Shown piece after piece: positions 8,238 through 64,000 of a DNA stretch of 64,000 nucleotides (positions are counted from its first letter, which is position 1; every line of letters starts with the position of its first letter). The position numbers were made by a program, and so were the translations under genes. This DNA is from Candidatus Heimdallarchaeota archaeon (GTDB lineage Archaea; Asgardarchaeota; Heimdallarchaeia; Hodarchaeales; Hodarchaeaceae), in NCBI GenBank assembly GCA_020353515.1, contig CP070695.1, positions 3,646,277 through 3,710,276 of the forward strand. Reading direction: 5' to 3'. Below the pieces are notes generated by a model. That model saw only the letters and a list, made by a program, of their open reading frames with translations, was not told the DNA's origin and ran no database searches.

Positions 8238-8396
8238 GTATTACGTCTCCAGGCTTTTTTATATTCAACCTATTGCATTGAACTTAAAAATCCTCCTAAG
8301 ATTGTAAAAATAAGCTGTTTATAAGAAAGAAACTCCCTGACATTTATAATAAGTATGAGTACAAGTGATAATAATATAGTAAAATGGTGAAGTATA

Positions 8397-8891: not shown

Positions 8892-8938
8892 ATCAATTCA
8901 ATAAACAGATCTTATACATCTTCTGTAAGGGATTTAAA

Positions 8939-12032: not shown

Positions 12033-12881
12033 TTACAGTGGTGGCCCATTCCTCACTATCTGTTGAATATTCTTTAAAGAATCACGACCAGGATATATAC
12101 ATTCAACAATCCATGTCACTCCAGCTTCTATATAGTCGTGTATCCATTGATTTTCCTCTTTTTTGGAGGCTGTGACAACTGTGTGAATCACATCAAAAGG
12201 TTTTGAGGTCTTCCGATGGAGTTTGACATACTGAATAATTTCTTTCATGTCATCTGGCCATAAAGGTTCTTCAAATCCTTCTCTAAGAGGAAATAATCCA
12301 TCAAATTTTGCTGCTCGTCGAAATGGTCGCTTATTTGGCCAAGTACATCCAACCCAGATTGGTATTTCCTTCTGTATTGGTTTGGGAATAAATCTAACCT
12401 CATTTATCTGATAGTATTCCCCTTGGTAAGCGAATGGTTCTCCAGTCCATAAACCTGTTAAGATATCTAGTGATTCATCTAATTTCTTCCCACGAACTTT
12501 AGAATCATCTTCTTCACCAAAATCACTGAATTCATTATCCACCCCTAATCCAACTCCCAATATGAATCTCCCATTAGACAACCGATCCAATGAAACTGTT
12601 TCTCTTGCGATTTTCCAAGGTCTTCTTCTTGCTAAAGCAGTTACAGTTGTTCCAATTCTTAGTTTATCTGTTTTTGTAGCTACCCCAGCCAGGACTATCC
12701 ATGGATCAAGTATTGGATTAGGATTGTCCTTACCTAAATGCATGTGATCCCATATGAAAAACCCATCCCAATTATTCTCTTCTGCTATTATTGATAGCTT
12801 TATATAATCCTGTGGGTCTGTAAAAACTCCATGATTGGCAATATACACCCCAAACTTCGTATCAATACCCATTCTAACCAC
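12033..12881 (-). CDS. LLM-class flavin/F420-dependent oxidoreductase (paralogue of 4385-5236)
   Basis: WDGFFIWDH, DPWIVLAGVA, ARRRPWK and LDRLSNGRFILGVGLG. Confidence 0.88.
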   Translation of the reverse strand: MVRMGIDTKFGVYIANHGVFTDPQDYIKLSIIAEENNWDGFFIWDHMHLGKDNPNPILDPWIVLAGVATKTDKLRIGTTVTALARRRPWKIARETVSLDRLSNGRFILGVGLGVDNEFSDFGEEDDSKVRGKKLDESLDILTGLWTGEPFAYQGEYYQINEVRFIPKPIQKEIPIWVGCTWPNKRPFRRAAKFDGLFPLREGFEEPLWPDDMKEIIQYVKLHRKTSKPFDVIHTVVTASKKEENQWIHDYIEAGVTWIVECIYPGRDSLKNIQQIVRNGPPL

Positions 12882-13090
12882 CTACTTCTTATACAACAGA
12901 AAATCAAGAGTATTTTTATTTCATGAGAGTTATAAGAAAGATTCGATTTAGGGAATTCTTTAATCTAATAGAATATGTTTAGGAGGATTGTTCCAAATTA
13001 AAAATTTTTTTGATATCCTGGCATGTTGTTGAGATAGCTAATAGTCTTCTGAGACTTCAATTCCTCTAAAAAGCATGGAAGCTCTTTTAA

Positions 13091-13422
13091 TTATTGTTTC
13101 TTTCGTTTTTTATTCAGGCGAGAAACTACTAGGATTAGGACTGCGCTTGGAATCACAAATGCTAGTTCTAAGCTAGGAGTAATGCCTGGTACATCAACGC
13201 TATCGCTAACAGTAATGTTATCAAAAGACGAGTCACCAGTCCAAGAGCCAAAAATGCACATTTCTGAAGATGTTGTTTGATTATCCGTAACAGAGTCAAT
13301 TTCTCAGAATGTCCTGAATCAAAGTTTTCTGACCAAACTAAAACAGCCTGGCATGGATATACTGAATTAAAACTCAAAATTACAATGACATAAATCCCTA
13401 ACAAAAATCGCTTATTCCTCAT
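13091..13422 (-). pseudogene. Frame-disrupted, probably internally deleted, secreted membrane-anchored protein
   Basis: Frame A (ATG 13422) gives a signal peptide plus VWSENFDSG. Frame B (13303 to stop at 13091, no start of its own) gives EIDSVTDNQTTSSEMCIFGSWTGDSSFDNITVSDSVDVPGITPSLELAFVIPSAVLILVVSRLNKKRKKQ*, a typical TM plus basic tail. Confidence 0.7.
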
Positions 13423-13690
13423 TTCACTTACCACTTAACATTTAATCAGAAGTGAATTACGAACTCAAAACGCCTTTTATGTGCATTTTTCTAATGAAGT
13501 TTTCTATCAAAAATTAGATTCTAAGAGAGAAAGATGACACACTAACGATAAAAAGCTAGAACTAGGTATCATTTTTATAGGTTATAGAGAACTTCAGAAA
13601 TTACAGGCAAAAAACTGGAAACTTGATACAGATGGAGTAGTATAATACTAGAATTACTCCCTTTTTCAGTAGATTGTCAATTATTATGAT

Positions 13691-35824: not shown

Positions 35825-36772
35825 ATGGATCCATTTTTCATATCATTAGCCTTCATTGGAACTATTGTTATTTCGATAAGTTTTGTATATAGTAAGTTAG
35901 TTCTTGCTCAAATTAAAAATCCAATACACATGTTATTTCTTCAGATAACAATAAACTACATTCTCTTGTTAATTATCTACTTACCAAGTCTCTTAGTGTT
36001 TGGTTCCGAATTAAATGTAAATTTATCCATTAACAATATTTTCATTATATTTTGTTCTGCAATGGCGATTTTCACTGGATTGATCGCATTTTTTATTGGA
36101 TTACATGAGGGAAATGTTTCTGCTGGAGGAGTAATTGTTTCATCAAGAGTAATTGTTAGTCTTTTCTTAGCATGGATGTTCTTAAATGAGCGTTTTCCTT
36201 TCAACTCGTACCTTTTTATTTTTATAGTGTTCATTGGGGTTCTACTGGTATCATGGCAACAAGAGTTGAAATTAAAGGAAATAATCCTGTTTAAATCCAG
36301 TGGTTCGGGGTGGTTCCTAGTTGCTGTTACTTTTTTTGCAATAGGAAATGCATTTATTCGCCTACTTAGCAATCAGATCAATGTTCTCACTCAACTTGTA
36401 TTCCGATTGACATTTCTATTAATTGCTACTCTCCTGACCTACCCCTTATTAAATAGGAAGATTGGAGATAAAAGACACTTAAAGGAAACTCTTGGAAAAC
36501 CAAAACTGGTTTTACAGGCCACAATATATGTGATACTGATAATGATAGCAGATATTACCACTACTCTCGCTATAGGGGAATCATTAACTATTACTGAAGC
36601 TATTACTGCTTTAGAAGGTCTTTTTGTATTTATTTTCATGTTTCTCGTCGCACAAAATGAAACTCTCCTGAACGCTCTTCAAGAACCCTTTGATAAAAAA
36701 ACTCTAACAGTAAGATTTCTAGGAGTAATAATAGCCACTATTGGGATAATTAGTTTTATATCCAGTCTATGA
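35825..36772 (+). CDS. EamA/DMT family transporter
   Basis: About ten hydrophobic segments in two repeats; FLNER loop motif. Confidence 0.8.
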   Translation: MDPFFISLAFIGTIVISISFVYSKLVLAQIKNPIHMLFLQITINYILLLIIYLPSLLVFGSELNVNLSINNIFIIFCSAMAIFTGLIAFFIGLHEGNVSAGGVIVSSRVIVSLFLAWMFLNERFPFNSYLFIFIVFIGVLLVSWQQELKLKEIILFKSSGSGWFLVAVTFFAIGNAFIRLLSNQINVLTQLVFRLTFLLIATLLTYPLLNRKIGDKRHLKETLGKPKLVLQATIYVILIMIADITTTLAIGESLTITEAITALEGLFVFIFMFLVAQNETLLNALQEPFDKKTLTVRFLGVIIATIGIISFISSL

Positions 36773-47536: not shown

Positions 47537-49840
47537 ATGGTAGATATAAAATCCTTATTATCGCAATTAACTTTAGAAGAAAAAGCAGCTTTCTGCACTG
47601 GTTCAGGACCTTGGCAAACAATCGATGTGGAGCGACTAGGAATTCCCAGAATTACAATGAGCGATGGCCCTCACGGTGTACGAAAAGTTCAAAACATAGA
47701 GGAATTTGGTTTAGCAAAAAGTTTTCCTGCAACGTGTTTTCCTCCCGCCGTGCTTTTAGCATCGACATGGAATAAAGATCTAGTTCAAAGAGTGGGTGAG
47801 TTTTTAGGAGACGAATGTATTTCTCTCGATGTCGATATATTACTGGGGCCAGGTGTCAATATAAAGAGAACCCCCTTATGTGGTCGAAATTTTGAATATT
47901 ATTCCGAGGACCCCTATTTAGCTGGAGAAATGGGTACAGCTTTCGTAAAAGGTGTTCAAAGTAAGGGAGTGGGTACCTCGTTAAAGCATTATTCTGCAAA
48001 TAATCAAGAATATCAAAGATTCATTATTAGTGCAGAAATTGATGAACGTACGTTAAGAGAAATCTACTTACCAGCTTTCGAGAAGACTGTGAAAGAGTCA
48101 CAACCCTGGACTGTTATGTGTGCTTATAACAAAATAAATGGGATTTTCGCCTCGGAGCATTATGATCTTTTAACTAGAATAATGAAATCAGAATGGAATT
48201 TAGATGGGTTTATTGTTTCTGATTGGGGAGCCGTCCAAAATCGTGTTGCTGCACTCAAAGGAGGACTCGATCTTCAAATGCCTGGTCCCAACGATTTGGA
48301 TGTCCAAAAGGTTGTTGAGGCTGTCAAGAATAATGAACTTGATGAAAATGTCTTGAATCAAGCTGTAGAACGGATTTTGAAGATTATTTTTCGAGCTAAA
48401 AAAACAAAAAAAGCGCATATTGAATTCGATAAGGAAAAGCATCATGAATTCGCTCGTAAAGTAGCAGCAGAAGGTATTATTTTACTAAAGAATGAAGATA
48501 ATGTTTTACCGATAAAAGATGCTTCTTCAATTGCAATAATTGGAAAGATGGCAAAGGAACCTCGTTTCCAAGGCGGAGGTAGTTCTTTAATCAATCCTAC
48601 AAAAGTCGATAATCCTTTTCAAGAGATTAAAAAGTTAGGAGGAGAAAGTATTCTTGTTAGATATGCCGATGGTTACGCAAAAGAAGGCATAGATAAAACA
48701 TTAATAGATGAAGCATGTGATGTCGCCAAACAATCCGACATTGTCATTATATTTTCAGGCTTACCCTTCGAGCATGAATCAGAGGGATACGATCGAAAAA
48801 CCATTAAAATGCCTGAAAGTCATATTGAGCTCATAAAAGCTGTAGCAAAGTCCAATACTAAGACAATAGTAGTTTTGAATAATGGTTCTGTTATTAGTCT
48901 ATATGAATGGATTGATAGTGTTCCAGTAGTTATTGAAGCTTATTTAGGAGGACAAGCGGGTGGAGGAGCAGTAGCAGATGTTTTGTTTGGTAAAGAAAAT
49001 CCATCGGGGAAATTAGCTGAATCTTTTCCTAAAAGATTAGAACATACTCCTTCCTATATTAATTATCCTGGAGAGGCTGGAAAAGTAAGATACGGGGAGG
49101 GCCTCTATGTTGGGTATAGATACTATGATAAAAAATCAATCGAACCGATTTTTCCATTTGGATATGGATTAAGCTATACTACATTTGCTTACTCAAATTT
49201 AACAATTTCCAGCAAATCTTTCAAAGACATAGATGGTGTTGATGTTAATGTGGATATAACTAATACAGGGAAAGTTCCAGGAAAAGAAGTTGTACAATTA
49301 TACATTCACCAGCCCAATCCTAAAGCCGATAAACCAAACAAAGAGATGAAAGGATTTAGTAAAGTTGAACTACAGCCCAATGAAACAAAAACTGTTGCTT
49401 TCCACTTAGATTCTCGTTCTTTTGCCTATTATAGTGTTATTCACAAATCATGGGTTTGGGATAATGGAGAATATGAGATTCTCGTTGGAGCATCATCAAA
49501 GGATATTCGATTAAGAACTAAGGTGATTTTGGAGTCAACTCAAAATTTACCTTGCAAATTGAATATGGATTCAACATTGCGTGATTGGCTTGATGATCCA
49601 AACGGAAAATTCATTATAGACGAAATGATTGCTCAGCGTATTAATCAAGTAAAAATGCAGAATCCAGATATGGAAGTTGATGAAAACCAAGTAAAACAAG
49701 AACTTCTTATGTGGGCGATTGATATGCCTTTGTTAAGAATGTTCAAGTATGTTGAAAACCAGCTTCCAATGTCGGCTGAAGATCTTGTTAAATACTTCTT
49801 AACCCGAGTAGGAGTTAATAATGAAGAAAACGCGTCTTAA
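47537..49840 (+). CDS. GH3 beta-glucosidase (BglB-type) with Fn3-like domain
   Basis: SDGPHGVRK, ATCFP, GPGVNIKRTPLCGRNFEYYSEDP, KHY, VSDWG, QGGGSS, ESEGYDR and YVGYRYYD. Confidence 0.93.
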   Translation: MVDIKSLLSQLTLEEKAAFCTGSGPWQTIDVERLGIPRITMSDGPHGVRKVQNIEEFGLAKSFPATCFPPAVLLASTWNKDLVQRVGEFLGDECISLDVDILLGPGVNIKRTPLCGRNFEYYSEDPYLAGEMGTAFVKGVQSKGVGTSLKHYSANNQEYQRFIISAEIDERTLREIYLPAFEKTVKESQPWTVMCAYNKINGIFASEHYDLLTRIMKSEWNLDGFIVSDWGAVQNRVAALKGGLDLQMPGPNDLDVQKVVEAVKNNELDENVLNQAVERILKIIFRAKKTKKAHIEFDKEKHHEFARKVAAEGIILLKNEDNVLPIKDASSIAIIGKMAKEPRFQGGGSSLINPTKVDNPFQEIKKLGGESILVRYADGYAKEGIDKTLIDEACDVAKQSDIVIIFSGLPFEHESEGYDRKTIKMPESHIELIKAVAKSNTKTIVVLNNGSVISLYEWIDSVPVVIEAYLGGQAGGGAVADVLFGKENPSGKLAESFPKRLEHTPSYINYPGEAGKVRYGEGLYVGYRYYDKKSIEPIFPFGYGLSYTTFAYSNLTISSKSFKDIDGVDVNVDITNTGKVPGKEVVQLYIHQPNPKADKPNKEMKGFSKVELQPNETKTVAFHLDSRSFAYYSVIHKSWVWDNGEYEILVGASSKDIRLRTKVILESTQNLPCKLNMDSTLRDWLDDPNGKFIIDEMIAQRINQVKMQNPDMEVDENQVKQELLMWAIDMPLLRMFKYVENQLPMSAEDLVKYFLTRVGVNNEENAS

Positions 49841-49904
49841 TCGAATAACAGTCACATGATTCCTTATCAATTACAAAAGAAAAGACCAAATAGAAAGAGG
49901 AGTT

Positions 49905-50888
49905 TCACCATGGAGGATGGTAAATTCCGTGGATGTCAGGTTTATTATTGAGAATCTCCTCTATCTGATTTAAAGTCTTATCACTGAGCTTTAATCCTGA
50001 TGCTTGGGTGTTAGATGTAATATGTTGAGGTTTGGTTGCACCTGTGATTGCACAACTTATTTCTTCATGTCTCAAGATCCAAGCAAGTGCTAATTGAGAC
50101 ATCTGCACATTTAATTCATCAGCAATAGGTTGAAGTTGTTTTACTTTTTCTATATTTGCAGGATTCAAATCCCATTTAAGCCAATCAGTTGAAGCTCCTC
50201 TACTCTCCGTTGGAATACCCTCATTATACTTCCCTGTCAATACTCCTTGACATAAAGGAGAAAAACAGACAATACCCATACCATTACGTTTACAGGTCTC
50301 CATTACACCATGAGGCATTTCAATGTATCGATTCAACATATGATACTGAGGCTGTTCTACAACTGGAGGATGACACCCAAGAGTTTTTGCCATCCAGAAA
50401 GCTCTCTCTAATTGCACTGCTGTCCACACGGAGGTTCCCCAATAATGGACAAGCCCCCTATCAACGAGATCAGACATTGCTTGTACAGTTTCTTCCAGAG
50501 GAGTGTATCTATCATATCTGTGGCAGAAATAAATATCTAAATAGTCTGTATTTAGACGCTTTAGGGTATCATCAATTGATTCCAAGATATGTTTTCGACT
50601 CAGACCTCTATCATTAACTCCTTTAGACATGGGCCAGAAGACTTTGCTACTTATCACTAGGTCTTTTCTATTGTAATTCTCTTCCTGAATCAGCTCTCCT
50701 ATCACTTTTTCTGCATTTCCTCCACTATAGACATCAGCAAGATCTATGAAATTTATGCCAAGGTCAATGGCTTTACTTACACATTCTCTAGTAGAATCCG
50801 TATCTTGAGATCCTCCATAAGTTAACCAAGCCCCCAAGCTTATCTCACTTATTTTTAACCCTGTTTTCCCTACATGACGATATTCCAT
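49905..50888 (-). CDS. Aldo/keto reductase (Kv-beta-like subfamily)
   Basis: MEYR.VG.TGLKISEISLG.W, D.ADVY, SSKVFW, GLSRKHI, YFCHR and EQPQY. Confidence 0.9.
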   Translation of the reverse strand: MEYRHVGKTGLKISEISLGAWLTYGGSQDTDSTRECVSKAIDLGINFIDLADVYSGGNAEKVIGELIQEENYNRKDLVISSKVFWPMSKGVNDRGLSRKHILESIDDTLKRLNTDYLDIYFCHRYDRYTPLEETVQAMSDLVDRGLVHYWGTSVWTAVQLERAFWMAKTLGCHPPVVEQPQYHMLNRYIEMPHGVMETCKRNGMGIVCFSPLCQGVLTGKYNEGIPTESRGASTDWLKWDLNPANIEKVKQLQPIADELNVQMSQLALAWILRHEEISCAITGATKPQHITSNTQASGLKLSDKTLNQIEEILNNKPDIHGIYHPPW

Positions 50889-50927
50889 TTATTTCACCTT
50901 TTAAAACTAATAATTCTAATAAAAAGA

Positions 50928-52265
50928 TTAAGATTTTGTATATGTTTTAACGATATCTATGATTCCATGCCACTGCTCACAGTTCTCAAAGAGAAAAGAC
51001 TCTGGATATGTGAGTAATTCTCTAACTGGAATTTTATTCAATGTATCTTTGTAGCGATTACATAAAACTAGTTGATTGTTGGCTAATAAGCGGAAGTTGA
51101 GCTTCCGTTGAAGATTGTTGGGTAAATGGGTTAAATTCATATTTTTCAAGACTTCATTCGAAACTAAATATTTCTGGAACTCCTCACTGAATTTCCAATC
51201 TCCCGAGGCTGAAACTGAAAATTTCATCCATGGAGAGTCAGTTTTTGGATGGAGGCATCCCATACTTCTAGCATCTTTGAAGGTCCAAATAGACCAAGAT
51301 ACGCCATGTTTTTCGAAAACTGCAATCGTGTCTCGCAATACTGATTCGTGAAATTTGCTATTGCCTCTTCTTAAGGAAATTCCAGTTTCACCACACCATA
51401 AAGGACGTTGCAATTCATTTTTGACATAATCTATTTCACCATCTCCAAAAATCGCATTCTGAATTTTATCAAACCGTAGTTGAGGATTTATTTCAACGTA
51501 ATCGCCAAAAATTGAGGGATAAAAATGAAATGAATAGGCAATGTTTGGATCTTCATAAGGAGTGAAATCTGTAAAGAAGTGCCCATAAAAATCTCCTTCA
51601 ATGAAAAAAATATGATTTTTGTCCACTTTTCGTAAATTTCTTACTAAATTGTGATAAAATTCATCAACTATCTCCCCCCTTGGTTCATAATAGCAGGGCT
51701 CGTTCATTAAATCATATGCAGCGACCCATGGATTATTACAATAGTGTTGAGCTATATATTTCCATAATTCAATGACACGGTTCTGGAAGTCTGGATGTTC
51801 CCAAAATAGAGCTTCACCTATTGCATTATCTGAGTGCCAATCAGGATTTTGTCCTCCTGGTGCAGCGTGAAGATCAAGAATCGCATAGATTTTATATTTT
51901 TCACACAATTTTAGGATTCGATCTATCTGGTTAAAGCCATTTGGATTATAAGAATAAGGTTGCAAGTCAGATTCAAAAAGCCGATAATTAAATGAAATTC
52001 TAATGGAATTAACACCAATTTCACTAAGAAATTGAAAGTCTGCTTCTTTGATGTAACAATTGTAATATTTTTCCCAGAATTCACTGGCTTTTTTTGATCC
52101 ATAAGCTTTTTCGAGGGCTCGCCTTAATTGAGATTCAGAGCCAGGAAGACCAATCATAAAGTGCTCTATGTTTAACCAGTTTCCAATACCAAATCCTCTA
52201 AATATGATTTCATTTCCATTTACAAGAAATTTTGATCCATCTACTTTAACATAGGGAGAATTCAC
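50928..52265 (-). CDS. Cytoplasmic GH5 glycoside hydrolase
   Basis: G.GNWLN.E.FM, ILDLHAAPGGQNPDWHSD, YDLMNEP, FHFY and WCGETG. Confidence 0.87.
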   Translation of the reverse strand: MNSPYVKVDGSKFLVNGNEIIFRGFGIGNWLNIEHFMIGLPGSESQLRRALEKAYGSKKASEFWEKYYNCYIKEADFQFLSEIGVNSIRISFNYRLFESDLQPYSYNPNGFNQIDRILKLCEKYKIYAILDLHAAPGGQNPDWHSDNAIGEALFWEHPDFQNRVIELWKYIAQHYCNNPWVAAYDLMNEPCYYEPRGEIVDEFYHNLVRNLRKVDKNHIFFIEGDFYGHFFTDFTPYEDPNIAYSFHFYPSIFGDYVEINPQLRFDKIQNAIFGDGEIDYVKNELQRPLWCGETGISLRRGNSKFHESVLRDTIAVFEKHGVSWSIWTFKDARSMGCLHPKTDSPWMKFSVSASGDWKFSEEFQKYLVSNEVLKNMNLTHLPNNLQRKLNFRLLANNQLVLCNRYKDTLNKIPVRELLTYPESFLFENCEQWHGIIDIVKTYTKS

Positions 52266-53969: not shown

Positions 53970-54707
53970 TCATTTTGGTAGTCCTAGATATTCTAAAGTC
54001 TCTTTCATCCATTGAGTGAAGGTGATTTTATTTTTAATGATTTTATCGACTTGACTTTTATATTCTTTCGCGGCTGCCTCTGTTGGGATTATTAGAAAGG
54101 AATCTTTATTTTCAATAGCCTGTATACAGATCATAGGATTCTCTAATCCTGAAGCAGTGTCAGCAGTTGCTAGTTCAAGCTCTAAAAGGAATATAAAGTC
54201 CTTAGCTTTCACATCATCAAAATCATATCTCGCCATATTTTCGTCAGGAGATAAATCGAGTAATACTCTACTCCATTCTGATATCCAATACTCATCAGTG
54301 AACCAGTGCTCAAGAAACTCCTTTTTACGAGCACGAAGCTCGCTAAGTACAACCATATTTCGTATCATGCCCTCACGTACTGATTTCATTAGTTTAAGAC
54401 CTGAATCGGTGAAAAGCTGAGGAAATTTTGCACGTTCATGGCTTAAGAGAACCATAATTCTTACAATTTCTTCCAACTCTTTGTCAGAAGGAATGGGTAC
54501 AAAATTAGAGACCTTCTTCAGCCATTCTATAGTTTGAGTGACATCAGATTGACTTACTGGTGATCTTTGTTCAGAGGCTAATTTTTGTTTTATCCAATTT
54601 CTATTTTTCAACTGAAGTTCCATTCTTTTACTTTCAGTTACCCCACGACGTCTCCTCCACTCTCCAATGTCTATCCTTGCTCGAAAAGTCTCCATTGTAT
54701 TAATCAC
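53970..54707 (-). CDS. Hypothetical protein
   Basis: 245-aa ORF with an AGGTGA motif at the start region; no family recognised. Confidence 0.65.
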   Translation of the reverse strand: MINTMETFRARIDIGEWRRRRGVTESKRMELQLKNRNWIKQKLASEQRSPVSQSDVTQTIEWLKKVSNFVPIPSDKELEEIVRIMVLLSHERAKFPQLFTDSGLKLMKSVREGMIRNMVVLSELRARKKEFLEHWFTDEYWISEWSRVLLDLSPDENMARYDFDDVKAKDFIFLLELELATADTASGLENPMICIQAIENKDSFLIIPTEAAAKEYKSQVDKIIKNKITFTQWMKETLEYLGLPK

Positions 54708-54798: not shown

Positions 54799-57700
54799 TC
54801 ATCCTAAGAGAATGGAAATTGAGTTTATTTTACCAGTCCTTATCATTGAGGCATATGGGGCTCTGATCTTACTCCCCTTGAGATTAACAATTTCTCCCCC
54901 TTTAATTTCAAGCTTGATCTCTTTAACTTTTGTCCCATTATTAAAAGTATTTAATTTCTGTGGATTTTGGTAGGTCACAACGCAATTTCCTAGGAAATTA
55001 AAGGTTACAGAACCATTTTCATCAAATAACCAGTTTGGTAGAATTGGTTTGAATTCTAAGCATAATTGGTTATTTTCCAAAAAAAAGGGGTTATTTCCTA
55101 CCATCATCAGAAGCCAAATATTCAGGAATTCAGCTGTTGCCCCACTTAATCTTGCATAGAACCCTGTGCCATGGAGAGTTTCATCAATGAAAGCGCTACT
55201 AACAATAAACGACGAATTTTCAGTCAAATTTCTTCCATATACTTCTACATCCTGAAAAGGAATGAGTACATTTTTGAAATCATCAAAAAATTCATTGTAA
55301 AGCCCTTTTTTAAGTAATTCAATCAAGAATTTGTACTCCATGTGAAGCCAGATTGATTCATTTTCTAACCAACCTGGAGTGAAAGCTTTAGCTCTCCCAA
55401 TATCGACAGGTTGTTTTTCAAGTGATTCGTTCAATTTATACATCTTTAACTTCTGGTCAAAAAGGTTACTGTCCCTTACTTGCCTCCATATTTTTCTTGC
55501 ACTTTCTTCATCAGATTGAACCTTCAAGGCTTTTACAAAACCCTCCAAAAACAATGGAAGTAAAATTGGTTTGAATTGTCTAACTTTTACATTAGGGTAT
55601 CCATTTTTATTAGTTTTAACATTTCCCTGTTCATCATAAAGCATTTGAAAGTTTTCTATTTCGTAATAAAAGTACGTTGGGATTCTATTATTGTTTAATT
55701 CAAAAGCAAGAGATAAACCCTCTTCGATTTTAATTAAAAACCTCTTTAATATGCTTTTTACTTCTGGAATTGCAATTTCTCTTTCCTCACCCATGAGTCC
55801 TAATTTGATTCTCTTTCTAAAGCGTTCTCTTTCTGTTGACACCAAATCCCAATAGTGATATTGCTTATTTTTTACTCTTGAAGAAAAATAATCATCTAAA
55901 TGTCTCAATACTGCCCAGAGAAAATCATAAATTTCCACTGGGAGTTTAATAGATTTGTGTGCGTGATTCTCTAAAGAGTTAGACATAAATTTAATGAATC
56001 TTTGGAGTTCGTAAGTTTCAGGTATCGAAGAGCCAAAAATTCCTGGCAATCCATTTAGAGCGTCATACCAGCCTGGCTTATCCGCTTCCATCTCAATTCC
56101 CATCCCATAAGGATCTAAAGTAGAAAATTTAATCAGGACTAGACAAAAGAGCTTTGAAAACAGACTAGTTTTATAAATGGAGCCAGACCCATTTTCTATT
56201 CTTACTGAATTCGGAAATCTGTCTCTAGAGTTTATTTGCTCCTCTTTTTGTCTATCTATTACAACAGAATCTATTTGCCTTACTTTTCCTTCAATTAATA
56301 CATATTTGTCTTCTCTTGGCTGAGCCATGGCCAAACTGTCATAAAAAGAGAAAATTATCATCTCAAAAAGCAATTTATCCTTTTTATCTGGATAGATTGA
56401 AATATAATCTTCAATAAGATCCAGATTATATGTCCAGTGATCTACCCAATAGCCTTCTCCATGTACGGCTTCAAATATCTGATCTGAATGTTTTAGAACC
56501 TTATTAAGAAAATCTGAAAGAGATAACTGTATATCGATTTTATGTTCCAGTAAATACCTGACTAATTTACCTGGAGTGAAAGGTTGGTTAAAGAAATCTT
56601 CAACTTTAATTTTATCACTCGTAAGATCTAGTATTTGAGGTAGATATTCTGCTTTTACATGAAAACTCGAACCCTGAAGGACCAATGGATTATACCCATC
56701 TAGTTGAATTAAATTCATGAATGTGAGGATATTGAAATGTTGAATGTTAGGGTGTATATGTACATCACATCTACGATTTTGATTTACATCTCGGTAATTT
56801 CCATTCCCTTGTGAGAAGAAATTATCGTCTAAATAGAACCAATTGTAATCTCGTTCTAGATCCCCGTGTTTTCTAAAGTATAAGTGAAATACAACAGGTG
56901 TATTTGTTCTATCTACAATCTTAGGAATTCCTCCCCGTAAAACGTTGTCCAGATAATTTTGTTGACAATAGAGGTCGAATAATTTTAAGGATGTTTTTGT
57001 TTTAACTTTCTTGGTTATTGATGTTATTATTTCCCTATTTTCATCTTTTTTTTCTTTGATATATTGCTTATTTACAATTTTTTGTTTTTGGTTATTCAAC
57101 CTATTTACATCATTCACTTGTCCAATAATAGAAAAGATTTCTACTTTATCTTTTGGTTCTAGATTAAGCTCAGCACCAAAAAAGCCACAGGGAATCTTAT
57201 TAGCAGTGATTTGTCGCCTTTTAAGTAAATCTCCAATAGTATACTTTAAAAAGCCATCAGGATGAGAAAAGGATGTATTTTTACCAAAAATTATCTCTGG
57301 ATCAACAATAGGCTCTAAAACTCTTGGAGATTCCTTTTCTTGTAAAAATGACAGATAAAAATGTCCTGTTTGTACTTTCTCAACCTTGGTTTCGTCTCCA
57401 ATCCTCGAACTAACTTTATAGAAGGGAATTTTTTCATTCATGTTTGTGATTTCAATCCACCCAATCCCAGTGTAACTCATATTCTTCAGAACTTGATGAT
57501 TGAATCCGAAAGGAATTACAATTGGTAATCCGTCAAGTAATTCCATTTTTATGGGAGCTGATGAAACGTTCTCTATTGTTAATATCCGAATTAATCCACC
57601 AAAATCTTCGTTTGGTATAGTAAAATAAGATACATTGATTTTCAGGTTGTGGTATTTGGAAATCTCCTCAATTTCTAAATCATAATAACTTATCATCATT

Positions 57701-58038
57701 CTTTCAATCTTTTCGAAAGTCTGGAGATTAACGGAGAAAGGTTCATAAAAAATTGATCTATTCTTATCTTTGATCTTAATGAAAGTCCTATATCCTGTGA
57801 AAGGTGTAGTTTGGTAGGATTTGTTGGCAGGGAAGAATTCTAAAATTGGACCATTTTTATCTTTAAATCCGAAACTGGCAATTCCTTGTCCCCTATTAAC
57901 ATAAAAGAGCCATATTGGAATACCCCTTGTACCAGCAATACCTGGTAGAAAACTAGCGAAAGGTTTCGTATTATTATAGTTCTCTATAATAAATCTATTA
58001 TTCTCATCATAATAATAATCACTCAATATACAACCCAT
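54799..58038 (-). CDS. GH161 beta-1,3-glucan phosphorylase
   Basis: F.IENY...F.SFLPGIAG..GIP.W.FYVNRGQGIASFG, YLDNVLRGG, RKHGDLERDYN, GNGNYRDVNQNRR, GYWVDHWTY, KPGWYDALNGLP, GWLENESIWLHMEYK and ARLSG.TAE. Confidence 0.88.
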   Translation of the reverse strand: MGCILSDYYYDENNRFIIENYNNTKPFASFLPGIAGTRGIPIWLFYVNRGQGIASFGFKDKNGPILEFFPANKSYQTTPFTGYRTFIKIKDKNRSIFYEPFSVNLQTFEKIERMMISYYDLEIEEISKYHNLKINVSYFTIPNEDFGGLIRILTIENVSSAPIKMELLDGLPIVIPFGFNHQVLKNMSYTGIGWIEITNMNEKIPFYKVSSRIGDETKVEKVQTGHFYLSFLQEKESPRVLEPIVDPEIIFGKNTSFSHPDGFLKYTIGDLLKRRQITANKIPCGFFGAELNLEPKDKVEIFSIIGQVNDVNRLNNQKQKIVNKQYIKEKKDENREIITSITKKVKTKTSLKLFDLYCQQNYLDNVLRGGIPKIVDRTNTPVVFHLYFRKHGDLERDYNWFYLDDNFFSQGNGNYRDVNQNRRCDVHIHPNIQHFNILTFMNLIQLDGYNPLVLQGSSFHVKAEYLPQILDLTSDKIKVEDFFNQPFTPGKLVRYLLEHKIDIQLSLSDFLNKVLKHSDQIFEAVHGEGYWVDHWTYNLDLIEDYISIYPDKKDKLLFEMIIFSFYDSLAMAQPREDKYVLIEGKVRQIDSVVIDRQKEEQINSRDRFPNSVRIENGSGSIYKTSLFSKLFCLVLIKFSTLDPYGMGIEMEADKPGWYDALNGLPGIFGSSIPETYELQRFIKFMSNSLENHAHKSIKLPVEIYDFLWAVLRHLDDYFSSRVKNKQYHYWDLVSTERERFRKRIKLGLMGEEREIAIPEVKSILKRFLIKIEEGLSLAFELNNNRIPTYFYYEIENFQMLYDEQGNVKTNKNGYPNVKVRQFKPILLPLFLEGFVKALKVQSDEESARKIWRQVRDSNLFDQKLKMYKLNESLEKQPVDIGRAKAFTPGWLENESIWLHMEYKFLIELLKKGLYNEFFDDFKNVLIPFQDVEVYGRNLTENSSFIVSSAFIDETLHGTGFYARLSGATAEFLNIWLLMMVGNNPFFLENNQLCLEFKPILPNWLFDENGSVTFNFLGNCVVTYQNPQKLNTFNNGTKVKEIKLEIKGGEIVNLKGSKIRAPYASMIRTGKINSISILLG

Positions 58039-58047
58039 CCTAATATG

Positions 58048-58857
58048 TTATTTTTGTAATCGTAGAAGAAATTCTTTAACTCCTTCACCATTTGGAAAGT
58101 TTAAGACGCCTAATGAAAGATCTTTCAATCTCCTTGGTGATGATGGAAAAGTCCAAGACTCATTAGCAACCTCTGCACAATGAATATCATTTTCAGAATC
58201 ACCAATAAAGATCACTTTTAGATCTTTGATTTCTTGATTGAAGAACTCTTTCAAGAAGTCTGGAAGAAACATACATTTCTTAACTAAAGGCGGAGAGATT
58301 TCGAGATATGTGTCATGAGAAGTACTCAATTGAACTTGATTAGATAATTTTCTGCTAAGATGCTTACGAACCGTTTTTATCTTAAATTCGTCATCAATTA
58401 ATAGAATCTTTATACAGCCATTCAAAAATTCATTTCGCCAAGGTACAGGGGTAATCCCTGTTACTTTAGCCTCTCTTTCCACACCTGGGGAGAAATCGGA
58501 TACTGCCCAAAAATCTGTTCCATAATATGTTGTGATGACGTTAAAGGAAGAGAGCTCTTTGTTAATTATAGCGACTGTTTCATTTGGAAAATATTTTATT
58601 TTATCGAATTTTTGCCAACATGTGAGGTGAAGTGCAGCTCCGTTTAGGGAAATAGTGGGCACAAATTCAAAGTAGTCCTTTAGGACAAATTTTACTCCTA
58701 GGGGATGTCGTGCTGTTGCAATTAGAATACGATCCTCATTAACATAATCTTTTAAGAGGACGGCAAGATCTTGGTTTAGCTTTTCCCCTGTTTTTATCAA
58801 AGTACCATCCATATCTAACACTAAAATGAACTCATCATCAATTACCAGATGATACAC
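58048..58857 (-). CDS. Cof-type HAD IIB phosphatase
   Basis: DMDGTL, IATAR, SLNGA, YLEI and GDSEND. Confidence 0.85.
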   Translation of the reverse strand: MYHLVIDDEFILVLDMDGTLIKTGEKLNQDLAVLLKDYVNEDRILIATARHPLGVKFVLKDYFEFVPTISLNGAALHLTCWQKFDKIKYFPNETVAIINKELSSFNVITTYYGTDFWAVSDFSPGVEREAKVTGITPVPWRNEFLNGCIKILLIDDEFKIKTVRKHLSRKLSNQVQLSTSHDTYLEISPPLVKKCMFLPDFLKEFFNQEIKDLKVIFIGDSENDIHCAEVANESWTFPSSPRRLKDLSLGVLNFPNGEGVKEFLLRLQK

Positions 58858-58938: not shown

Positions 58939-61900
58939 TTAATTATATAACCAACATTTTACCTGTCGTTCTTTATCAGACAGTTCAACGACTGGAGGTT
59001 CATAAGATTTACAATGGGTCATAATTTCAGGACACCTTGGATGGAAGCGACACCCAGGAGGAGGGTATCTTAAGTCAGGGTGACTACCTGGTATACTTCT
59101 TAATTCAGCTGGCCTTGTACCATCTGGATTAAATTTTACAATAGAAGAAATGAGTAAAGCTGTGTAAGGGTGAAGTGGATCATTGATAATATCATCCATA
59201 AAACCTGTTTCAACTATTTCACCACAATACATGATGATAGATCTACTACACAACTGTCTCAGAGTAGCTATATCATGAGAAACGAAGAGGATAGATTGAA
59301 TAATTCCTTTGTTCTTTAAGTCAGAAAGCATTTGTATCATCTGTTTTTGTGATGTAACATCTAAAGCACTAGTTGGCTCATCTATTATCAAAAGATTAGG
59401 ATTCCACAGGGTGGAGATCGCAATAACAACCCGCTGTTTCATACCTCCACTCAATTCATGAGGGTAACGATCTAAAACTGACTTGTCCAGACCCACTCTC
59501 TCAAAATGAATTTCTGCAAGTTTATAGGTTTCTACTTTAGATCCTTTTCTCCCAGTACGCTCTTCCACAACATCCATGATAAAGTCCTTGATCTTTTTCA
59601 CTGGATTCAAAGATTCCATCGAAGCTTGGGGGACATAAGACAATAGCCTGCATTTAACCTGTGTTCTCAAAGCCTCTGGCCTGATTTTATAAATGTCAAA
59701 CCTATCAACAAGAATTTTCCCCTTTTCATAATGCAAGAGTGGCCTGGGTGATCCTGTGAGAAGCTCCGCTAATGTGGACTTTCCACAACCAGATTCACCG
59801 GCAAGACCTACGATTTCACCTCTTTTAATTGTTAATGAAACATTATCCACACCATGTACAACCCCAAAAGATCCTCGATAGTAACCCTTCAGATTCTCAA
59901 CTGATAAAAGATATTCTAGGAATAAATCTTCATCTATGATTTTTGGTTCTTTGATACCTCTTCCACTAATAGCTGAGACAATAGATCGATGGGAAGAACG
60001 ATAACTCGGAATCGTTGTACTCACAATCGTTATTACAAATGAAATTGATACCCAAAGAAATATCATTAAAGGGTCTACATTTACCTTTATTGGAATGCTA
60101 GAAGAAATATACCACTGCATTAGATATGCACCAACAACTCCCTCAATTATTCCAATAATTACAGCTGTTATCTCCAACATTGTACTTTCAGCCAAAAAAA
60201 TGGAGAATACTTCTTTTTTAGAAATTCCCATAGCACGTATGATTCCTACTTCTCTTTCCATCTTCAATGTAGAGATAAGTATGCATACAAATTGAGCTAA
60301 TCCAACTAAGAAGAATGATTCTAAGAATAAAGTTTGAAATAACACAGCTTGTTTTCGAAGTGTTCCCTCGATAAATGTAGAAAAGTAATCTATTGAAACT
60401 GCGCGATAAAATTCATTATAAGTAAACTTAAGATTTTTAGTTAAATTATTCACATTAGTATCATCATCTATTGACATAACGAACCATTTTGCTACTGGTT
60501 CATCTTCGGAAGGAAAAAATTGATCAAACAAGACATTAGACAAATATAAATACAACCCTTGGCGTACAAAAGGATTACCACGTACAATTCCATTAATAAC
60601 TAATGTTTTTGTTATGTTCTCTTGTAATATGATTTGAATTGTTTCACCTAAGTCCACGTTCAGATGTTGTAAGAGAAGATTACTAATAATCACTCCTTGT
60701 TCCGAAGTATTCATCATCATTGCGAGATTAGGTTTTGTTTGGGCAATAATTGGACCTATGAACGTTTCATAATTTTTAGGATCAATACCAAAGATATTAA
60801 TTCGTTTAGAATTGAAATTCACGATAGTAGAACGTTCTTGTATGAAACTAGCTTCTACTATATCTCTATTACGCTCTAATTTTTCAACCACTGTAATTGG
60901 TAACTCTTGTCCATCATAACATTCTGCAATGATATCGATACCACCAAACTGATCATTATAATAGGTGGGAACAGCATCTATCAGAGCATTCGAAACTATT
61001 CCGATAATAATTATGAAAGACAAGGCGATAGCACTCGTCATAATAGTAATTGCCGATTTGGAGGCTTCACGTTTTACGTTTCGTGATGAAACTACTTTTG
61101 CAATGGTTGAAAACCAAAATAAGTTCTTTCCAACCTTAGGTAAAAAGTTCAATAAACCAGTTTGAATTAAAAACGTTCCAATTAAGATTAATACAAGAAC
61201 AATGAAATGAAAAGAGACAATTTCAAAAGAAAGAAATCGTGACGGACCAATAAAGTAGGATCCAATAATACCAATTGCACTTAGAACAATACCAGTCAAA
61301 AATGTATATTTCCATGTAACTTTCCATTTTTGCTCTATACTACGCTGTTGATAATGAATGTTTTGAACAGGAGGAAGAACGATAGCGATTACAACTGGAT
61401 AGATTCCTGCAATGAGGGATATCAAAATTCCGGAAAGAAACGCAGTACCTACGGACGCTGGTTTTATTACTAACTGGGTGACAGTTACTATTTCCACTGT
61501 TTGGTTAAATAGGGTTAAATACATTACTGAGAAGAGAAATCCAAAAATAGTTCCAAAAAAACTCCCTAACGTGCTATAAACTAGAATTTCAATCCCAAGA
61601 GTCACAACGATTTGAAAATTCGATGTTCCTACTGATTTTAAGATTCCAAATTCTTTTTTTCGTTCATTCACATTAATAGTTAGTAGATTAGCAAGAAATA
61701 AGATAGCTACAACAAACGATGCCAATACAATTATGTTCATGGCCGTTTGATAAGAAGTAATACCAAGTCTGGCAATTTCTGAAATTATTTTCCCCCGTAT
61801 GACTAAGAACTCCTCTCCAACTGTACTTTTTATATTTGTGACAACTTCATCAATCTCGAGTAAATCATCAACTTCGACTATACATTCAATATGGAAACTC

Positions 61901-62532
61901 CATTTTGCCTCTAATAACTTTTCACAAAGAAAATCAGCATCTACTAAGATATAAAGATATCCGAATAAGTTTCCAAAATTACTACTGTCTTCCATTATCC
62001 CCCTTATATATACTGAGCCAGAAATGTCAGGAATCAATTGAGATAAGTTAATTTTTTGATTAGGGGTGACTCCGAACATCTTTGCAAGTGTGTTTGAGAT
62101 TAGAATCCCATTATTTTTCAGTCTTAGATTTCCTTCAAGTAATTCTATATTTTGAAAATCAGGGTGACTTGTATCACAACCATATACAACAAGGTTTTCA
62201 TTTATATCAAAACCTCGACCTAAATATTGAAGGGTCTCATTTGAATAAATATGAGTTATTATTGTACTGGACTTGCTGACTCCAGATACAGATTGTACTG
62301 TGGTTGTTAATTCTCTCATTTCTTCAAGAGTCTTGTTATTATGTATTGAATAAATATTAATATCAGTATAATTATTCAATCGACGATCAGTGATAAAATT
62401 ATCATAAAGAGAATCAATAGAAATAGCTATCCCAGTTTCGAGCGCAACAGATAGTGTGATACCCAGTATTAATAGAATGCTTCTCCATTTATTCCTTCTC
62501 ACATTATGGAAAGCTATTCCAATATATCTCAT
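58939..62532 (-). CDS. Fusion: FtsX/MacB-type double permease plus C-terminal OppD/DppD-type ABC ATPase
   Basis: Two FtsX repeats (ERKKEFGILKSVG; EREVGIIRAMG) with extracellular domains. From about 59916 downward: GESGCGKS, YPHELSGGMKQR, IIDEPTSALD, SHD, PLHPYT and GCRFHPRC..C..VKCW. Confidence 0.88.
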   Translation of the reverse strand: MRYIGIAFHNVRRNKWRSILLILGITLSVALETGIAISIDSLYDNFITDRRLNNYTDINIYSIHNNKTLEEMRELTTTVQSVSGVSKSSTIITHIYSNETLQYLGRGFDINENLVVYGCDTSHPDFQNIELLEGNLRLKNNGILISNTLAKMFGVTPNQKINLSQLIPDISGSVYIRGIMEDSSNFGNLFGYLYILVDADFLCEKLLEAKWSFHIECIVEVDDLLEIDEVVTNIKSTVGEEFLVIRGKIISEIARLGITSYQTAMNIIVLASFVVAILFLANLLTINVNERKKEFGILKSVGTSNFQIVVTLGIEILVYSTLGSFFGTIFGFLFSVMYLTLFNQTVEIVTVTQLVIKPASVGTAFLSGILISLIAGIYPVVIAIVLPPVQNIHYQQRSIEQKWKVTWKYTFLTGIVLSAIGIIGSYFIGPSRFLSFEIVSFHFIVLVLILIGTFLIQTGLLNFLPKVGKNLFWFSTIAKVVSSRNVKREASKSAITIMTSAIALSFIIIIGIVSNALIDAVPTYYNDQFGGIDIIAECYDGQELPITVVEKLERNRDIVEASFIQERSTIVNFNSKRINIFGIDPKNYETFIGPIIAQTKPNLAMMMNTSEQGVIISNLLLQHLNVDLGETIQIILQENITKTLVINGIVRGNPFVRQGLYLYLSNVLFDQFFPSEDEPVAKWFVMSIDDDTNVNNLTKNLKFTYNEFYRAVSIDYFSTFIEGTLRKQAVLFQTLFLESFFLVGLAQFVCILISTLKMEREVGIIRAMGISKKEVFSIFLAESTMLEITAVIIGIIEGVVGAYLMQWYISSSIPIKVNVDPLMIFLWVSISFVITIVSTTIPSYRSSHRSIVSAISGRGIKEPKIIDEDLFLEYLLSVENLKGYYRGSFGVVHGVDNVSLTIKRGEIVGLAGESGCGKSTLAELLTGSPRPLLHYEKGKILVDRFDIYKIRPEALRTQVKCRLLSYVPQASMESLNPVKKIKDFIMDVVEERTGRKGSKVETYKLAEIHFERVGLDKSVLDRYPHELSGGMKQRVVIAISTLWNPNLLIIDEPTSALDVTSQKQMIQMLSDLKNKGIIQSILFVSHDIATLRQLCSRSIIMYCGEIVETGFMDDIINDPLHPYTALLISSIVKFNPDGTRPAELRSIPGSHPDLRYPPPGCRFHPRCPEIMTHCKSYEPPVVELSDKERQVKCWLYN

Positions 62533-62663: not shown

Positions 62664-63551
62664 CTAGTAATAACCAAGTACTCCTTTTTTCCGGGTCCGA
62701 TATTCAAAGTAGTTAAAGATTAAAATTCCTAAACAGAGCCAAACGATATTTAGGAATGATAGATATACTAGAATTTCAAACCAATAATCACTAAATCCTT
62801 GAAGTACGCCTTCTCGGAAACCTTCGACACCCCATGTAATTGGGGAAATAAATGATAATGGTCTGAGGAAGAAAGGTAGTACAGCCAACGGGAAGAATGC
62901 TGGTGCCAGTAAGTTCATGAATCCATCCATAAAGAGGACGAATTTCCATGCTTGCTTCATAGCAAGCACTAATCCAGAAATAATTAAAGAAAAACCCAAC
63001 AACGAGACCGTAGCAAAAAACAAGATCAGTATCATTGGAAGGAAATTTAAAAGATTTATTTCTAATCCGTAGAGAAAGAATACACCACCAACTTGTAAGA
63101 AAAATGCCAATACTGACATAGTTAATCCAAAAAGTGTATTTCCTAAAATAATTGAAAATCTGGATGCAGGAGTCATATAAATACTGACCAAAGTCCCAGT
63201 CCATTCTTCGCGTCGAATACCCATAGCACCCATCCAATAGATTCGTGTTAGAATAGCCATTGATGCTGAACCGAAAGTTAAGAATAAAATAACATCACTT
63301 GTGGTTGCATAATTCGCTAACATCTCGCTTTCACGACCACCAACCAAGGTTTGTCCATAAATAATAACAGGTAATAAGAAAATCAATGGTTCAGAGACAA
63401 AATAGAGAAAAGTCAATGGATACGATAACCTAATTCTCCAATACTTGATCATTAGCTCCCAGGCACAATTTACTTCAAACCAAAGACGAGAGAGAGAACT
63501 TTGAAGAAATTGGGGTGATTGATCTTCATAAGATTTAGTTATGTGATCCAA
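62664..63551 (-). CDS. ABC-2 type permease
   Basis: EEWTGTL..IYMTP.SR, FFPL..LP..L..LS..SP.TWGVE..R and RKKG.LG.Y tail. Confidence 0.85.
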   Translation of the reverse strand: MDHITKSYEDQSPQFLQSSLSRLWFEVNCAWELMIKYWRIRLSYPLTFLYFVSEPLIFLLPVIIYGQTLVGGRESEMLANYATTSDVILFLTFGSASMAILTRIYWMGAMGIRREEWTGTLVSIYMTPASRFSIILGNTLFGLTMSVLAFFLQVGGVFFLYGLEINLLNFLPMILILFFATVSLLGFSLIISGLVLAMKQAWKFVLFMDGFMNLLAPAFFPLAVLPFFLRPLSFISPITWGVEGFREGVLQGFSDYWFEILVYLSFLNIVWLCLGILIFNYFEYRTRKKGVLGYY

Positions 63552-64000
63552 TTAATACACTCCCAAGGAACCTTGTTTCCGAGAATAGGCCTCCATTTTA
63601 GTAAAGAGAAGGATTCCAATCATCCATAGCAAAATATCAAGAAATATTAGGCCAATAATAAAAATCACCGGCTCTACAGAAGGGAATAACACTATTTCTG
63701 GCATTATTAACTTTCTGATTACAGAAAGTCCTAATGTAAAAGGAATAACCAACGAAATTACCCGAACCCACCCTGGTAATGCTTGTAAACTATACCTAAC
63801 GGGTGTGACAAAATGCAGACCTGTTTCAATCATTTCGGTCAAGGTTCCAGGTTCTTTGAAGACAATTATAATGCCTGCCATCAATACACCAAAGCCATAT
63901 AAACCAATATTTGTGAGGAACAGGATTCCTATGGATAAGATTACCCCATCCCATAAAATATGTATTTGAAGAAATAGACTAATTATTGTAAATTGAATTA
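63552..64000 (-). CDS. ABC-2 type permease, N-terminus beyond the window edge
   Basis: The frame is open from the window edge (IQFTIISLF..) through LPGWVR.IS..IP.T and RKQGSLGVY. Confidence 0.8.
   Translation of the reverse strand, partial: IQFTIISLFLQIHILWDGVILSIGILFLTNIGLYGFGVLMAGIIIVFKEPGTLTEMIETGLHFVTPVRYSLQALPGWVRVISLVIPFTLGLSVIRKLIMPEIVLFPSVEPVIFIIGLIFLDILLWMIGILLFTKMEAYSRKQGSLGVY

Follow-up and report, generated by a model that had tools for sequence, protein, structure and literature searches.

A YbbP-type double-FtsX permease fused to an OppD-type ATPase in one lineage of Hodarchaeales archaea

Introduction

ATP-binding cassette (ABC) systems are classed by the fold of their membrane domains, and each fold normally keeps its own lineage of ATPase. 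The type VII systems, built on the MacB/FtsX fold, have been described mainly in bacteria. Here we analyze a stretch of 64,000 nucleotides, called the window throughout, from a Candidatus Heimdallarchaeota archaeon of the order Hodarchaeales (assembly GCA_020353515.1, contig CP070695.1, positions 3,646,277 to 3,710,276 of the forward strand), and within it the gene P0001, which joins a type VII permease to an ATPase of the class found in oligopeptide (Opp) and dipeptide (Dpp) importers. P0001 is a genuine chimera, maintained by selection and confined to a single lineage, and we found its pairing of a type VII permease with an OppD-class ATPase nowhere else in the searches made.

Among the described type VII systems, MacB resembles P0001 in being an ATPase-permease fusion; its ATPase is N-terminal, it has 4 transmembrane (TM) helices, and it forms a homodimer that brings together two ATPases. 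Bacillus subtilis BceB (PDB 7TCG, 8S5G) shares the FtsX fold and 10 TM helices with P0001 but has a single large outer domain, whereas P0001 has two. Both BceAB and MacB use ATPases of the MacB/LolD class, unlike the OppD-class ATPase of P0001. The best structural match is the permease of Escherichia coli YbbAP(-TesA) (PDB 9GE6-9GE8), which, like P0001, is a single-chain 10-TM permease with an internal duplication and MacB-type outer domains. The partners of YbbP are two separate YbbA subunits, which are MacB/LolD-class ATPases, and the secreted protein TesA, whereas P0001 has one Opp-class ATPase, fused at its C terminus; neither a second ATPase nor a secreted partner is encoded near P0001, and sequence identity to YbbP is ~12%. 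The outer domains of YbbAP lie between TM1 and TM2 and between TM7 and TM8, its coupling helices are at TM2-TM3 and TM8-TM9, the ATPase:permease ratio is 2:1, and the absence of a pore led to the conclusion that it works by mechanotransmission (PMC12646458). None of the solved type VII members MacB, LolCDE, and YbbAP shows a transmembrane pathway or alternating access (PMC12646458).

On the ATPase side, the closest described proteins are OppD and DppD (4FWI; E. coli OppBCDF 8Z21 and DppBCDF 8Z1V; Mycobacterium tuberculosis OppABCD 8J5Q), which match the ATPase of P0001 over its full length, including the oligo_HPY domain and a four-cysteine tail. These proteins are free, or fused to each other or to OppC, and they power permeases of the BPD_transp_1 type that work with a binding protein; none of them is joined to an FtsX-type permease. 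In 4FWI and M. tuberculosis OppD, the Cys tail holds a 4Fe-4S cluster. Asgard archaea also have OppABCDF loci linked to a GH94 gene, whose OppD clade includes the fused ATPase and whose substrate class is that of GH161, the phosphorylase encoded near P0001; the fusion locus lacks OppA, OppB, OppC, and OppF. We take the Opp-family beta-glucoside importers of Thermotoga and Pyrococcus to be the functional model for them. P0001 departs from one defining feature of each parent family, namely the MacB/LolD-class ATPase of the one and the combination of BPD_transp_1 permease, OppF, and binding protein of the other.

Results and Discussion

P0001 combines a double-FtsX permease and an OppD-type ATPase in one reading frame

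P0001 is a single uninterrupted open reading frame (ORF), as seen in both the ORF list and the translation. Its parts are listed here in window coordinates.

58939..62532, minus strand: fusion gene P0001, YbbP-type double-FtsX permease plus OppD-type ATPase, 1197 aa (ORF, translation, Pfam, orthologues)
61735..62421, minus strand: extracytoplasmic domain 1, aa 38-266, MacB_PCD, between TM1 and TM2 (Pfam, TM scan, AlphaFold2 [AF2]; dN/dS 0.19)
60994..61734, minus strand: TM2-TM7, aa 267-513, first FtsX unit and two linking helices (Pfam FtsX, hydrophobicity scan, Foldseek to YbbP)
60331..60993, minus strand: extracytoplasmic domain 2, aa 514-734, second MacB_PCD, between TM7 and TM8 (Pfam, TM scan, AF2)
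59965..60330, minus strand: TM8-TM10 and a conserved C-terminal helix (IPSYRSS...AISGR), aa 735-856 (second FtsX stretch, family alignment at the junction)
59911..59964, minus strand: junction linker, aa 857-874, 18 aa, poorly conserved and of low predicted local confidence (alignment; AF2 pLDDT <50 at 857-867)
59215..59910, minus strand: ABC ATPase core, aa 875-1106 (motifs, alignment, Foldseek 4fwi, dN/dS 0.095)
58942..59214, minus strand: oligo_HPY domain with four conserved Cys, aa 1107-1197 (Pfam; alignment with M. tuberculosis OppD, PDB 8j5q)

Above the Pfam cut-offs, the chain contains MacB_PCD twice (best 18-234) and FtsX twice (best 267-383), followed in its C-terminal half by ABC_tran (896-1055) and oligo_HPY (PF08352, 1107-1174; 61.9 bits, with a cut-off of 27.1). 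The top NCBIfam models for the last 325 residues are DppD, OppD, and DppF, and GenBank annotates the fusion as "oligopeptide/dipeptide ABC transporter ATP-binding protein." By hydrophobicity, the chain has about 10 TM helices, with the two outer domains in the TM1-TM2 and TM7-TM8 intervals; this topology places both termini, and hence the ATPase, in the cytoplasm.

Every catalytic motif of the ATPase is intact (Walker A GESGCGKST, Q-loop VPQ, signature LSGGMKQR, Walker B/D-loop LLIIDEPTSALD, and H-loop FVSHD). Within the oligo_HPY domain, PLHPYT spans aa 1119-1124 and GCRFHPRC spans aa 1160-1167. M. tuberculosis OppD has counterparts of the HPYT motif and the four-Cys tail in the alignment, and both free OppDs and the fused orthologues retain the four Cys (that of genome G065 is not assessable, owing to a 100-N gap). 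In the family alignment, the fused ATPase domain begins at the exact start point of free OppD. The architecture given in a preliminary description of this DNA, a single 1197-aa ORF with two FtsX repeats, large outer domains, and a C-terminal ATPase with an OppD/DppD tail, is thus borne out by the ORF, Pfam, and the motif positions.

The two halves also differ in base composition. The G+C content is 38.6% in the ATPase part (58939-59910) and 32.5% in the permease part (59911-62532), with values of 35.8% for the genome and 37.2% for the free OppD of locus L004 described below. This contrast is consistent with a different origin and composition of the two halves.

The junction is real, under selection, and confined to one lineage

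The preliminary description placed the junction near 59900-59980 and named misassembly as a condition under which the chimera would fall. The linker at 59911-59964 lies within that range, and the same unbroken fusion is found in eight protein clusters (90% identity) from NCBI, JGI, ENA, and Logan assemblies, with orthologues 59-83% identical to P0001. Besides the source genome of the window (G000), three other species genomes of the genus (G067, G071, and G065) and one JGI metagenome contig carry it, so that uninterrupted copies come from independent assemblies of four species.

Pairwise comparison with the G067 orthologue gave a whole-gene ratio of nonsynonymous to synonymous substitution rates (dN/dS) of 0.14 (dS 0.65). 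By part, the ratio was 0.095 in the ATPase, 0.10-0.12 in the TM regions, and 0.19-0.23 in the outer domains; over all domains it ranged from 0.08 to 0.23, and relaxed constraint was confined to the 18-aa linker. The ATPase motifs and the four Cys are invariant among the fused copies. Between aa 840 and 894 there is no in-frame ATG, GTG, or TTG, which makes a free ATPase made from an internal start unlikely. That P0001 is an artefact of assembly, or two genes read through in the course of decay, has next to no probability, given that independent assemblies agree, both halves are under purifying selection, and the motifs are intact; the one apparent truncation, a shortened tail with a HAD fragment in G065, is an artefact of a 100-N scaffold gap.

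Our survey covered 400 Asgard genomes, 22 of which belong to the genus of the window, which is also its family. Within this set, the fusion occurs in 4 of the 22 genomes of that one Hodarchaeales genus and in no other. A phmmer search of 1.84 billion representative proteins returned, among the best 150 matches, one cluster spanning both halves; the remaining long matches among them were rejected as the same architecture because they are OppC-OppD-OppF fusions. When the junction itself (aa 760-1000) was used as the query, only the same eight clusters among the matches listed covered it at 100%; scores then fall from 336 to 117 bits, and later listed matches cover one side only. This junction-spanning search of 5.8 billion protein clusters listed no other carrier among its matches; one of the indexes is word-based, so a distant analogue elsewhere could escape it. 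All named relatives of the permease are from Hodarchaeales or Heimdallarchaeota, and we found nothing relevant in the literature on an FtsX-OppD fusion or on Hodarchaeales with these genes. The MacB_PCD-FtsX-FtsX-ABC_tran-oligo_HPY architecture is therefore conserved and, in the searches made, found nowhere outside the fusion group. From these sequence comparisons, P0001 is best explained as a functional chimeric ABC protein limited to one lineage. A selected chimera of this kind indicates that the ATPase-permease interface can be interchanged in vivo, even with an OppD that bears a putative Fe-S tail.

The permease half has the fold of YbbP and relatives tied to Opp genes

The AF2 model of P0001 has a pLDDT of 79 and a predicted TM-score (pTM) of 0.56, with values below 50 in the linker. 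When the membrane part was compared with the PDB using Foldseek, the best match was E. coli YbbP (9ge6/9ge7; E ~1e-22, ~900 aligned columns), followed by BceB as a weaker match (TM-score 0.41-0.42). P0001 shows the features of the 10-TM YbbP/BceB subtype of type VII systems, namely a single chain with a 4+2+4 arrangement of TM helices and outer domains at TM1-2 and TM7-8. The modeled fold thus assigns the permease half to the YbbP/BceB-type type VII modules. It is set apart from that class by being joined to an OppD/DppD-class ATPase rather than powered by one of the MacB/LolD/FtsE class. The YbbP topology provides two ATPase docking sites, a point absent from the preliminary description, and P0001 itself supplies one ATPase. 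The fusion operon contains no ATPase gene.

In the permease tree, the fused permeases are monophyletic (support 100) and sister to P0012, in which additional TM helices stand where the ATPase would be; the two groups combined are sister to a clade of ~900-aa permeases. In five genomes of the genus, a ~900-aa YbbP-like permease of this clade is encoded without a MacB-class ATPase, on the same strand and right after OppB (695-749 aa), OppC (485-497 aa), OppD, OppF, and a small TM ORF (142-167 aa). The OppB and OppC of these operons are unusually large. The order, seen at L040:7866-17047 (minus strand) with L055:12-4280 (plus strand), is repeated in L039, L041, L044, and L045. In genome G074, two SBP_bac_5 genes lie divergently upstream of the operon. 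These OppBCDF-x-permease operons (x being the small TM ORF) could encode a composite of Opp and type VII systems. Since sister permeases are found in OppBCDF operons, the tie of this permease family to Opp-type ATPases is older than the fusion; taken with these operons, the chimera can be read as a "Rosetta stone" predicting that the whole archaeal YbbP-like family works with Opp ATPases.

G000 itself has three paralogues at 40-41% identity (L001:8427-11948, plus strand; L002:6524-10315, minus strand; L003:7705-11475, plus strand). We rejected the idea that their C-terminal extensions are degenerate ATPases, since what follows TM10 in these proteins is a further 5-7 TM helices. For two of the three, the surrounding several kilobases showed no ABC ATPase gene, and the third is convergent with an OppBC-OppD-OppF operon.

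The ATPase half derives from an OppD of a beta-1,3-glucan operon

Foldseek matched the P0001 ATPase to the DppD domain 4fwi (TM-score 0.94) and to E. coli OppD and DppD. Its closest relative within G000 is the free OppD of locus L004 (73% identity), encoded in a canonical operon at 4.267 Mb of contig C1; the other eight oligo_HPY ATPases of this genome form four distant OppD/F pairs. In a maximum-likelihood tree, the fused ATPases and the L004 OppD form a clade (97/97) inside a clade of GH94-linked OppDs (100/100). Free OppDs with 54-65% identity occur in eight genomes of other Asgard families, in every case beside a GH94 gene and OppF; OppA, OppB, and OppC are also present at seven of these eight loci, while L052 has none of the three. 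The tree against known OppDs, proposed in the preliminary description as a check, therefore identifies the fused ATPase as sugar type, nested among GH94-linked OppDs. Only 3 positions (S888, E937, and L963) set the fused copies apart from free OppDs, and none of them is in a catalytic motif. The OppD of the permease-linked OppBCDF operons was considered as a donor and rejected, as it is 36-38% identical and falls in a different clade.

Locus L004 encodes two GH17-like proteins and GH94, then on the other strand an LVIVD protein, OppF, OppD, OppC, OppB, OppA, and GH3. The GH17-like proteins and OppA have signal peptides, S/T-rich linkers, and PGF-type TM tails. This gene content and the surface tails point to a donor locus for the surface degradation, import, and phosphorolysis of beta-1,3-glucan. 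An OppD copy from the organism's own beta-1,3-glucan operon (surface GH17, OppABCDF, GH94, GH3) was thus joined through an 18-aa linker to the C terminus of a permease in one Hodarchaeales subclade. In G071, the contig that carries the fusion also has the donor GH94-Opp operon, 11-16 kb away, an arrangement that may picture the setting in which the OppD copy was captured. The GH94-OppCDF cluster, GH5, GH20, the ABC-2 operon, the fusion, HAD, and GH161 all lie within ~25 kb there (G071:C22:11470-35597; L037 and beyond).

Three further observations concern the donor-type loci. At L004:1933-4533 (plus strand) and 12330-14456 (minus strand), the two GH17-like proteins and OppA share a C-terminal tail of PGF/KGF, TM helix, and basic residues, which looks like an archaeosortase-type surface anchor; the LVIVD protein has a different tail. 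The L004 OppF (8147-8944, minus strand) has a truncated oligo_HPY domain (33 of 65 positions), while its partner OppD keeps the full four-Cys tail. Among nine GH94-linked operons, OppF is short (265-276 aa) in L004, L047-L050, and L053 and 307-343 aa long in three others; a heterodimer of short OppF and full OppD would be asymmetric in its putative Fe-S domains.

As the preliminary description had observed, no OppA, OppB, OppC, or OppF partner lies near P0001: neither its operon nor the window encodes BPD_transp_1 OppB/C, OppF, or SBP_bac_5, and the nearest BPD_transp_1 permease is ~470 kb away. The fused domain might nonetheless act on a distant Opp permease, taking the OppD seat on OppBC and pairing with OppF, while the YbbP-like module serves as a passive or regulatory front end tethered to it. 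Such a role would suit an ATPase that is nearly the same as free GH94-linked OppD (3 specific substitutions), the action of Opp ATPases as D/F heterodimers, the sister permeases encoded inside OppBCDF operons, and the short distance between fusion and donor operon in G071. We regard it as rather improbable, because free OppD is retained in G000 and G071, so that the seat is already filled; L004-type OppC or OppF was not seen in G067 and G065 (both assemblies are incomplete); and the constraint on the TM core (dN/dS 0.10-0.13) exceeds that on the outer domains, as fits an active module over a passenger.

The fusion gene adjoins a beta-1,3-oligoglucan phosphorylase gene

The genes flanking P0001 are as follows.

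58048..58857, minus strand: Cof-type HAD-IIB phosphatase, 81 nt downstream of the fusion (Pfam, NCBIfam)
54799..58038, minus strand: GH161 beta-1,3-oligoglucan phosphorylase, cytoplasmic, 1079 aa, 9 nt after the HAD gene (homology to 9qqk/9h8v)
62664..64000, minus strand: two ABC-2 membrane genes, the second extending past the window, with a DrrA-like ATPase just beyond (Pfam, context)

The GH161 neighbor (P0002) matches 9qqk_A with 824.6 bits and 9h8v_A with 820.9 bits over residues 12-1076, and this full-length homology to solved structures marks it as a true GH161. Pfam and this match agree with the preliminary description, which had read the two same-strand downstream genes as a HAD phosphatase and a GH161 phosphorylase. 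It had also made the link to carbohydrate genes a point on which the proposal depended. That link holds, as GH161 and HAD adjoin the fusion in all four carriers, with the order fusion-HAD-GH161 kept in each. In bacteria, GH161 genes cluster with beta-glucosidases and with ABC transporters that often lack an ATPase or binding protein, and GH161 is thought to act in sequence with GH94 (PMC6484121).

GH161 is present in 5 of the 22 genus members, the four fusion carriers and G074. The G074 island contains GH3, GH5, the 245-aa ORF listed below, and GH161; HAD, the fusion, and ABC-2 are absent, and no remnants of the fusion or of HAD were found at this fusion-less GH161 locus. HAD, present wherever the fusion is and absent from the G074 locus, thus travels with the fusion, and GH161 depends on neither. 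The ABC-2 operon lies directly upstream of the fusion in two genomes, G000 and G067; G071 has it in divergent orientation, and the G065 locus lacks it.

All characterized type VII systems do envelope work (extraction, efflux, or hydrolase control). P0001 could likewise pull lipids, hydrophobic compounds, or proteins with a lipid anchor out of the outer leaflet, maybe together with the ABC-2 proteins, in which case its adjacency to GH161 would be accidental. The ABC-2 exporter operon next to the fusion in three of the four genomes, the joint gain or loss of HAD and fusion independently of GH161, and the lack of carbohydrate context around the G000 paralogues all agree with a role unrelated to glucan. 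We nevertheless consider it unlikely: the ATPase derives from a glucan importer, the fusion and HAD adjoin GH161 in four of four genomes despite rearranged flanks, and the ABC-2 operon is divergent in one of them and missing from another.

A possible outer-face role in oligosaccharide acquisition

The reading we favor, with a probability of about 0.5, is that P0001 is a type VII mechanotransmission device that works at the outer face of the membrane in the acquisition of beta-1,3-gluco-oligosaccharides and takes a second ATPase in trans. The fused ATPase would dock on its own permease at the TM8-TM9 coupling helix, and the second, most likely OppF or OppD, would occupy the TM2-TM3 site. ATP binding and hydrolysis would then move the two outer domains, with no transport through a pore, and this outer-face work might serve, for example, the capture or hand-over of oligomers.

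Several findings weigh against this proposal. Permeases of this type take two ATPases, yet the fusion brings one, and we found no consistent orphan Opp ATPase across the genomes: beyond its fused copy, G000 has four pairs, while a single additional unpaired gene is present in G065. No L004-type OppC, OppD, or OppF was seen in G067 and G065, both of which are incomplete assemblies. With only 3 fusion-specific positions, the fused ATPase does not look adapted to a different coupling helix, and the placement of the P0001 domains relative to each other is uncertain in the AF2 model (pTM 0.56). The fusion operon encodes no secreted partner protein, GH161 is present without the fusion in G074, and the carriers are all close kin, so that their synteny amounts to about one evolutionary event.

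The preliminary description proposed that the chimera may capture or import beta-glucan oligomers. If P0001 were a true importer, it would carry beta-gluco-oligosaccharides across the membrane, its own outer domains doing the work of a binding protein. All glycosidases of the island and its phosphorylase are cytoplasmic enzymes, and P0001 is the one ABC permease of importer-class ancestry there. Apart from the fusion and the ABC-2 proteins, the only polytopic membrane protein of the 64-kb window has 315 aa (35825-36772), and no other importer-type permease is encoded in the window. Its ATPase derives from an oligosaccharide importer, and bacterial GH161 genes usually adjoin ABC importers (PMC6484121). 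The type VII fold speaks against import, since the solved structures of MacB, LolCDE, and YbbAP show neither a transmembrane pathway nor alternating access (PMC12646458), which leaves import through P0001 itself without structural support; another locus of G000 also encodes a complete Opp importer for this class of substrates. We thus judge import by P0001 to be very unlikely, and of the earlier proposal, capture at the outer face stays plausible.

A broader idea, to which we give little credence, is that in Hodarchaeales oligosaccharides are taken up by way of an outer front end powered by ATP, made of YbbP-type modules that Opp ATPases drive; in its strongest version, P0001 would be the first solute-importing type VII ABC protein. 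If the front-end or the importer reading were true, the rule of one ATPase class for each fold would be broken in nature, and the sister-clade OppBCDF-x-YbbP-like operons would constitute a new composite importer. The position of P0001 within beta-1,3-glucan catabolic machinery offers a testable lead on the uptake of polysaccharide fragments by Hodarchaeales.

Other genes of the locus

Two further entries complete the surroundings of the fusion.

53970..54707, minus strand: 245-aa soluble ORF, no Pfam match (Pfam; context in relatives)
47537..52265, mixed strands: cytoplasmic GH3 at 47537-49840 (plus strand), aldo-keto reductase, and GH5 at 50928-52265 (minus strand), in the same carbohydrate island

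The flanks contain cytoplasmic GH3, GH5, and GH42 in G000; GH5 and GH20 in G071; and GH5, GH20, CBM96, and PfkB in G065. GH5 thus recurs in G071 and G065, and GH3 and GH5 together recur in G074. The 245-aa ORF follows GH161 in four of the five GH161 genomes, including G074 (64-73% identity), and a GH20-like gene takes its place in G065; the ORF tracks GH161, not the fusion. Upstream, a DrrA-like ATPase with a DrrA1-3_C domain and two different ABC-2 proteins are encoded at 62664-64000 (minus strand) and L005:5829-7662 (minus strand), 131 nt upstream of the fusion. These ABC-2/DrrA genes are 82-90% identical in G067 and G071 and are better conserved than the fusion.

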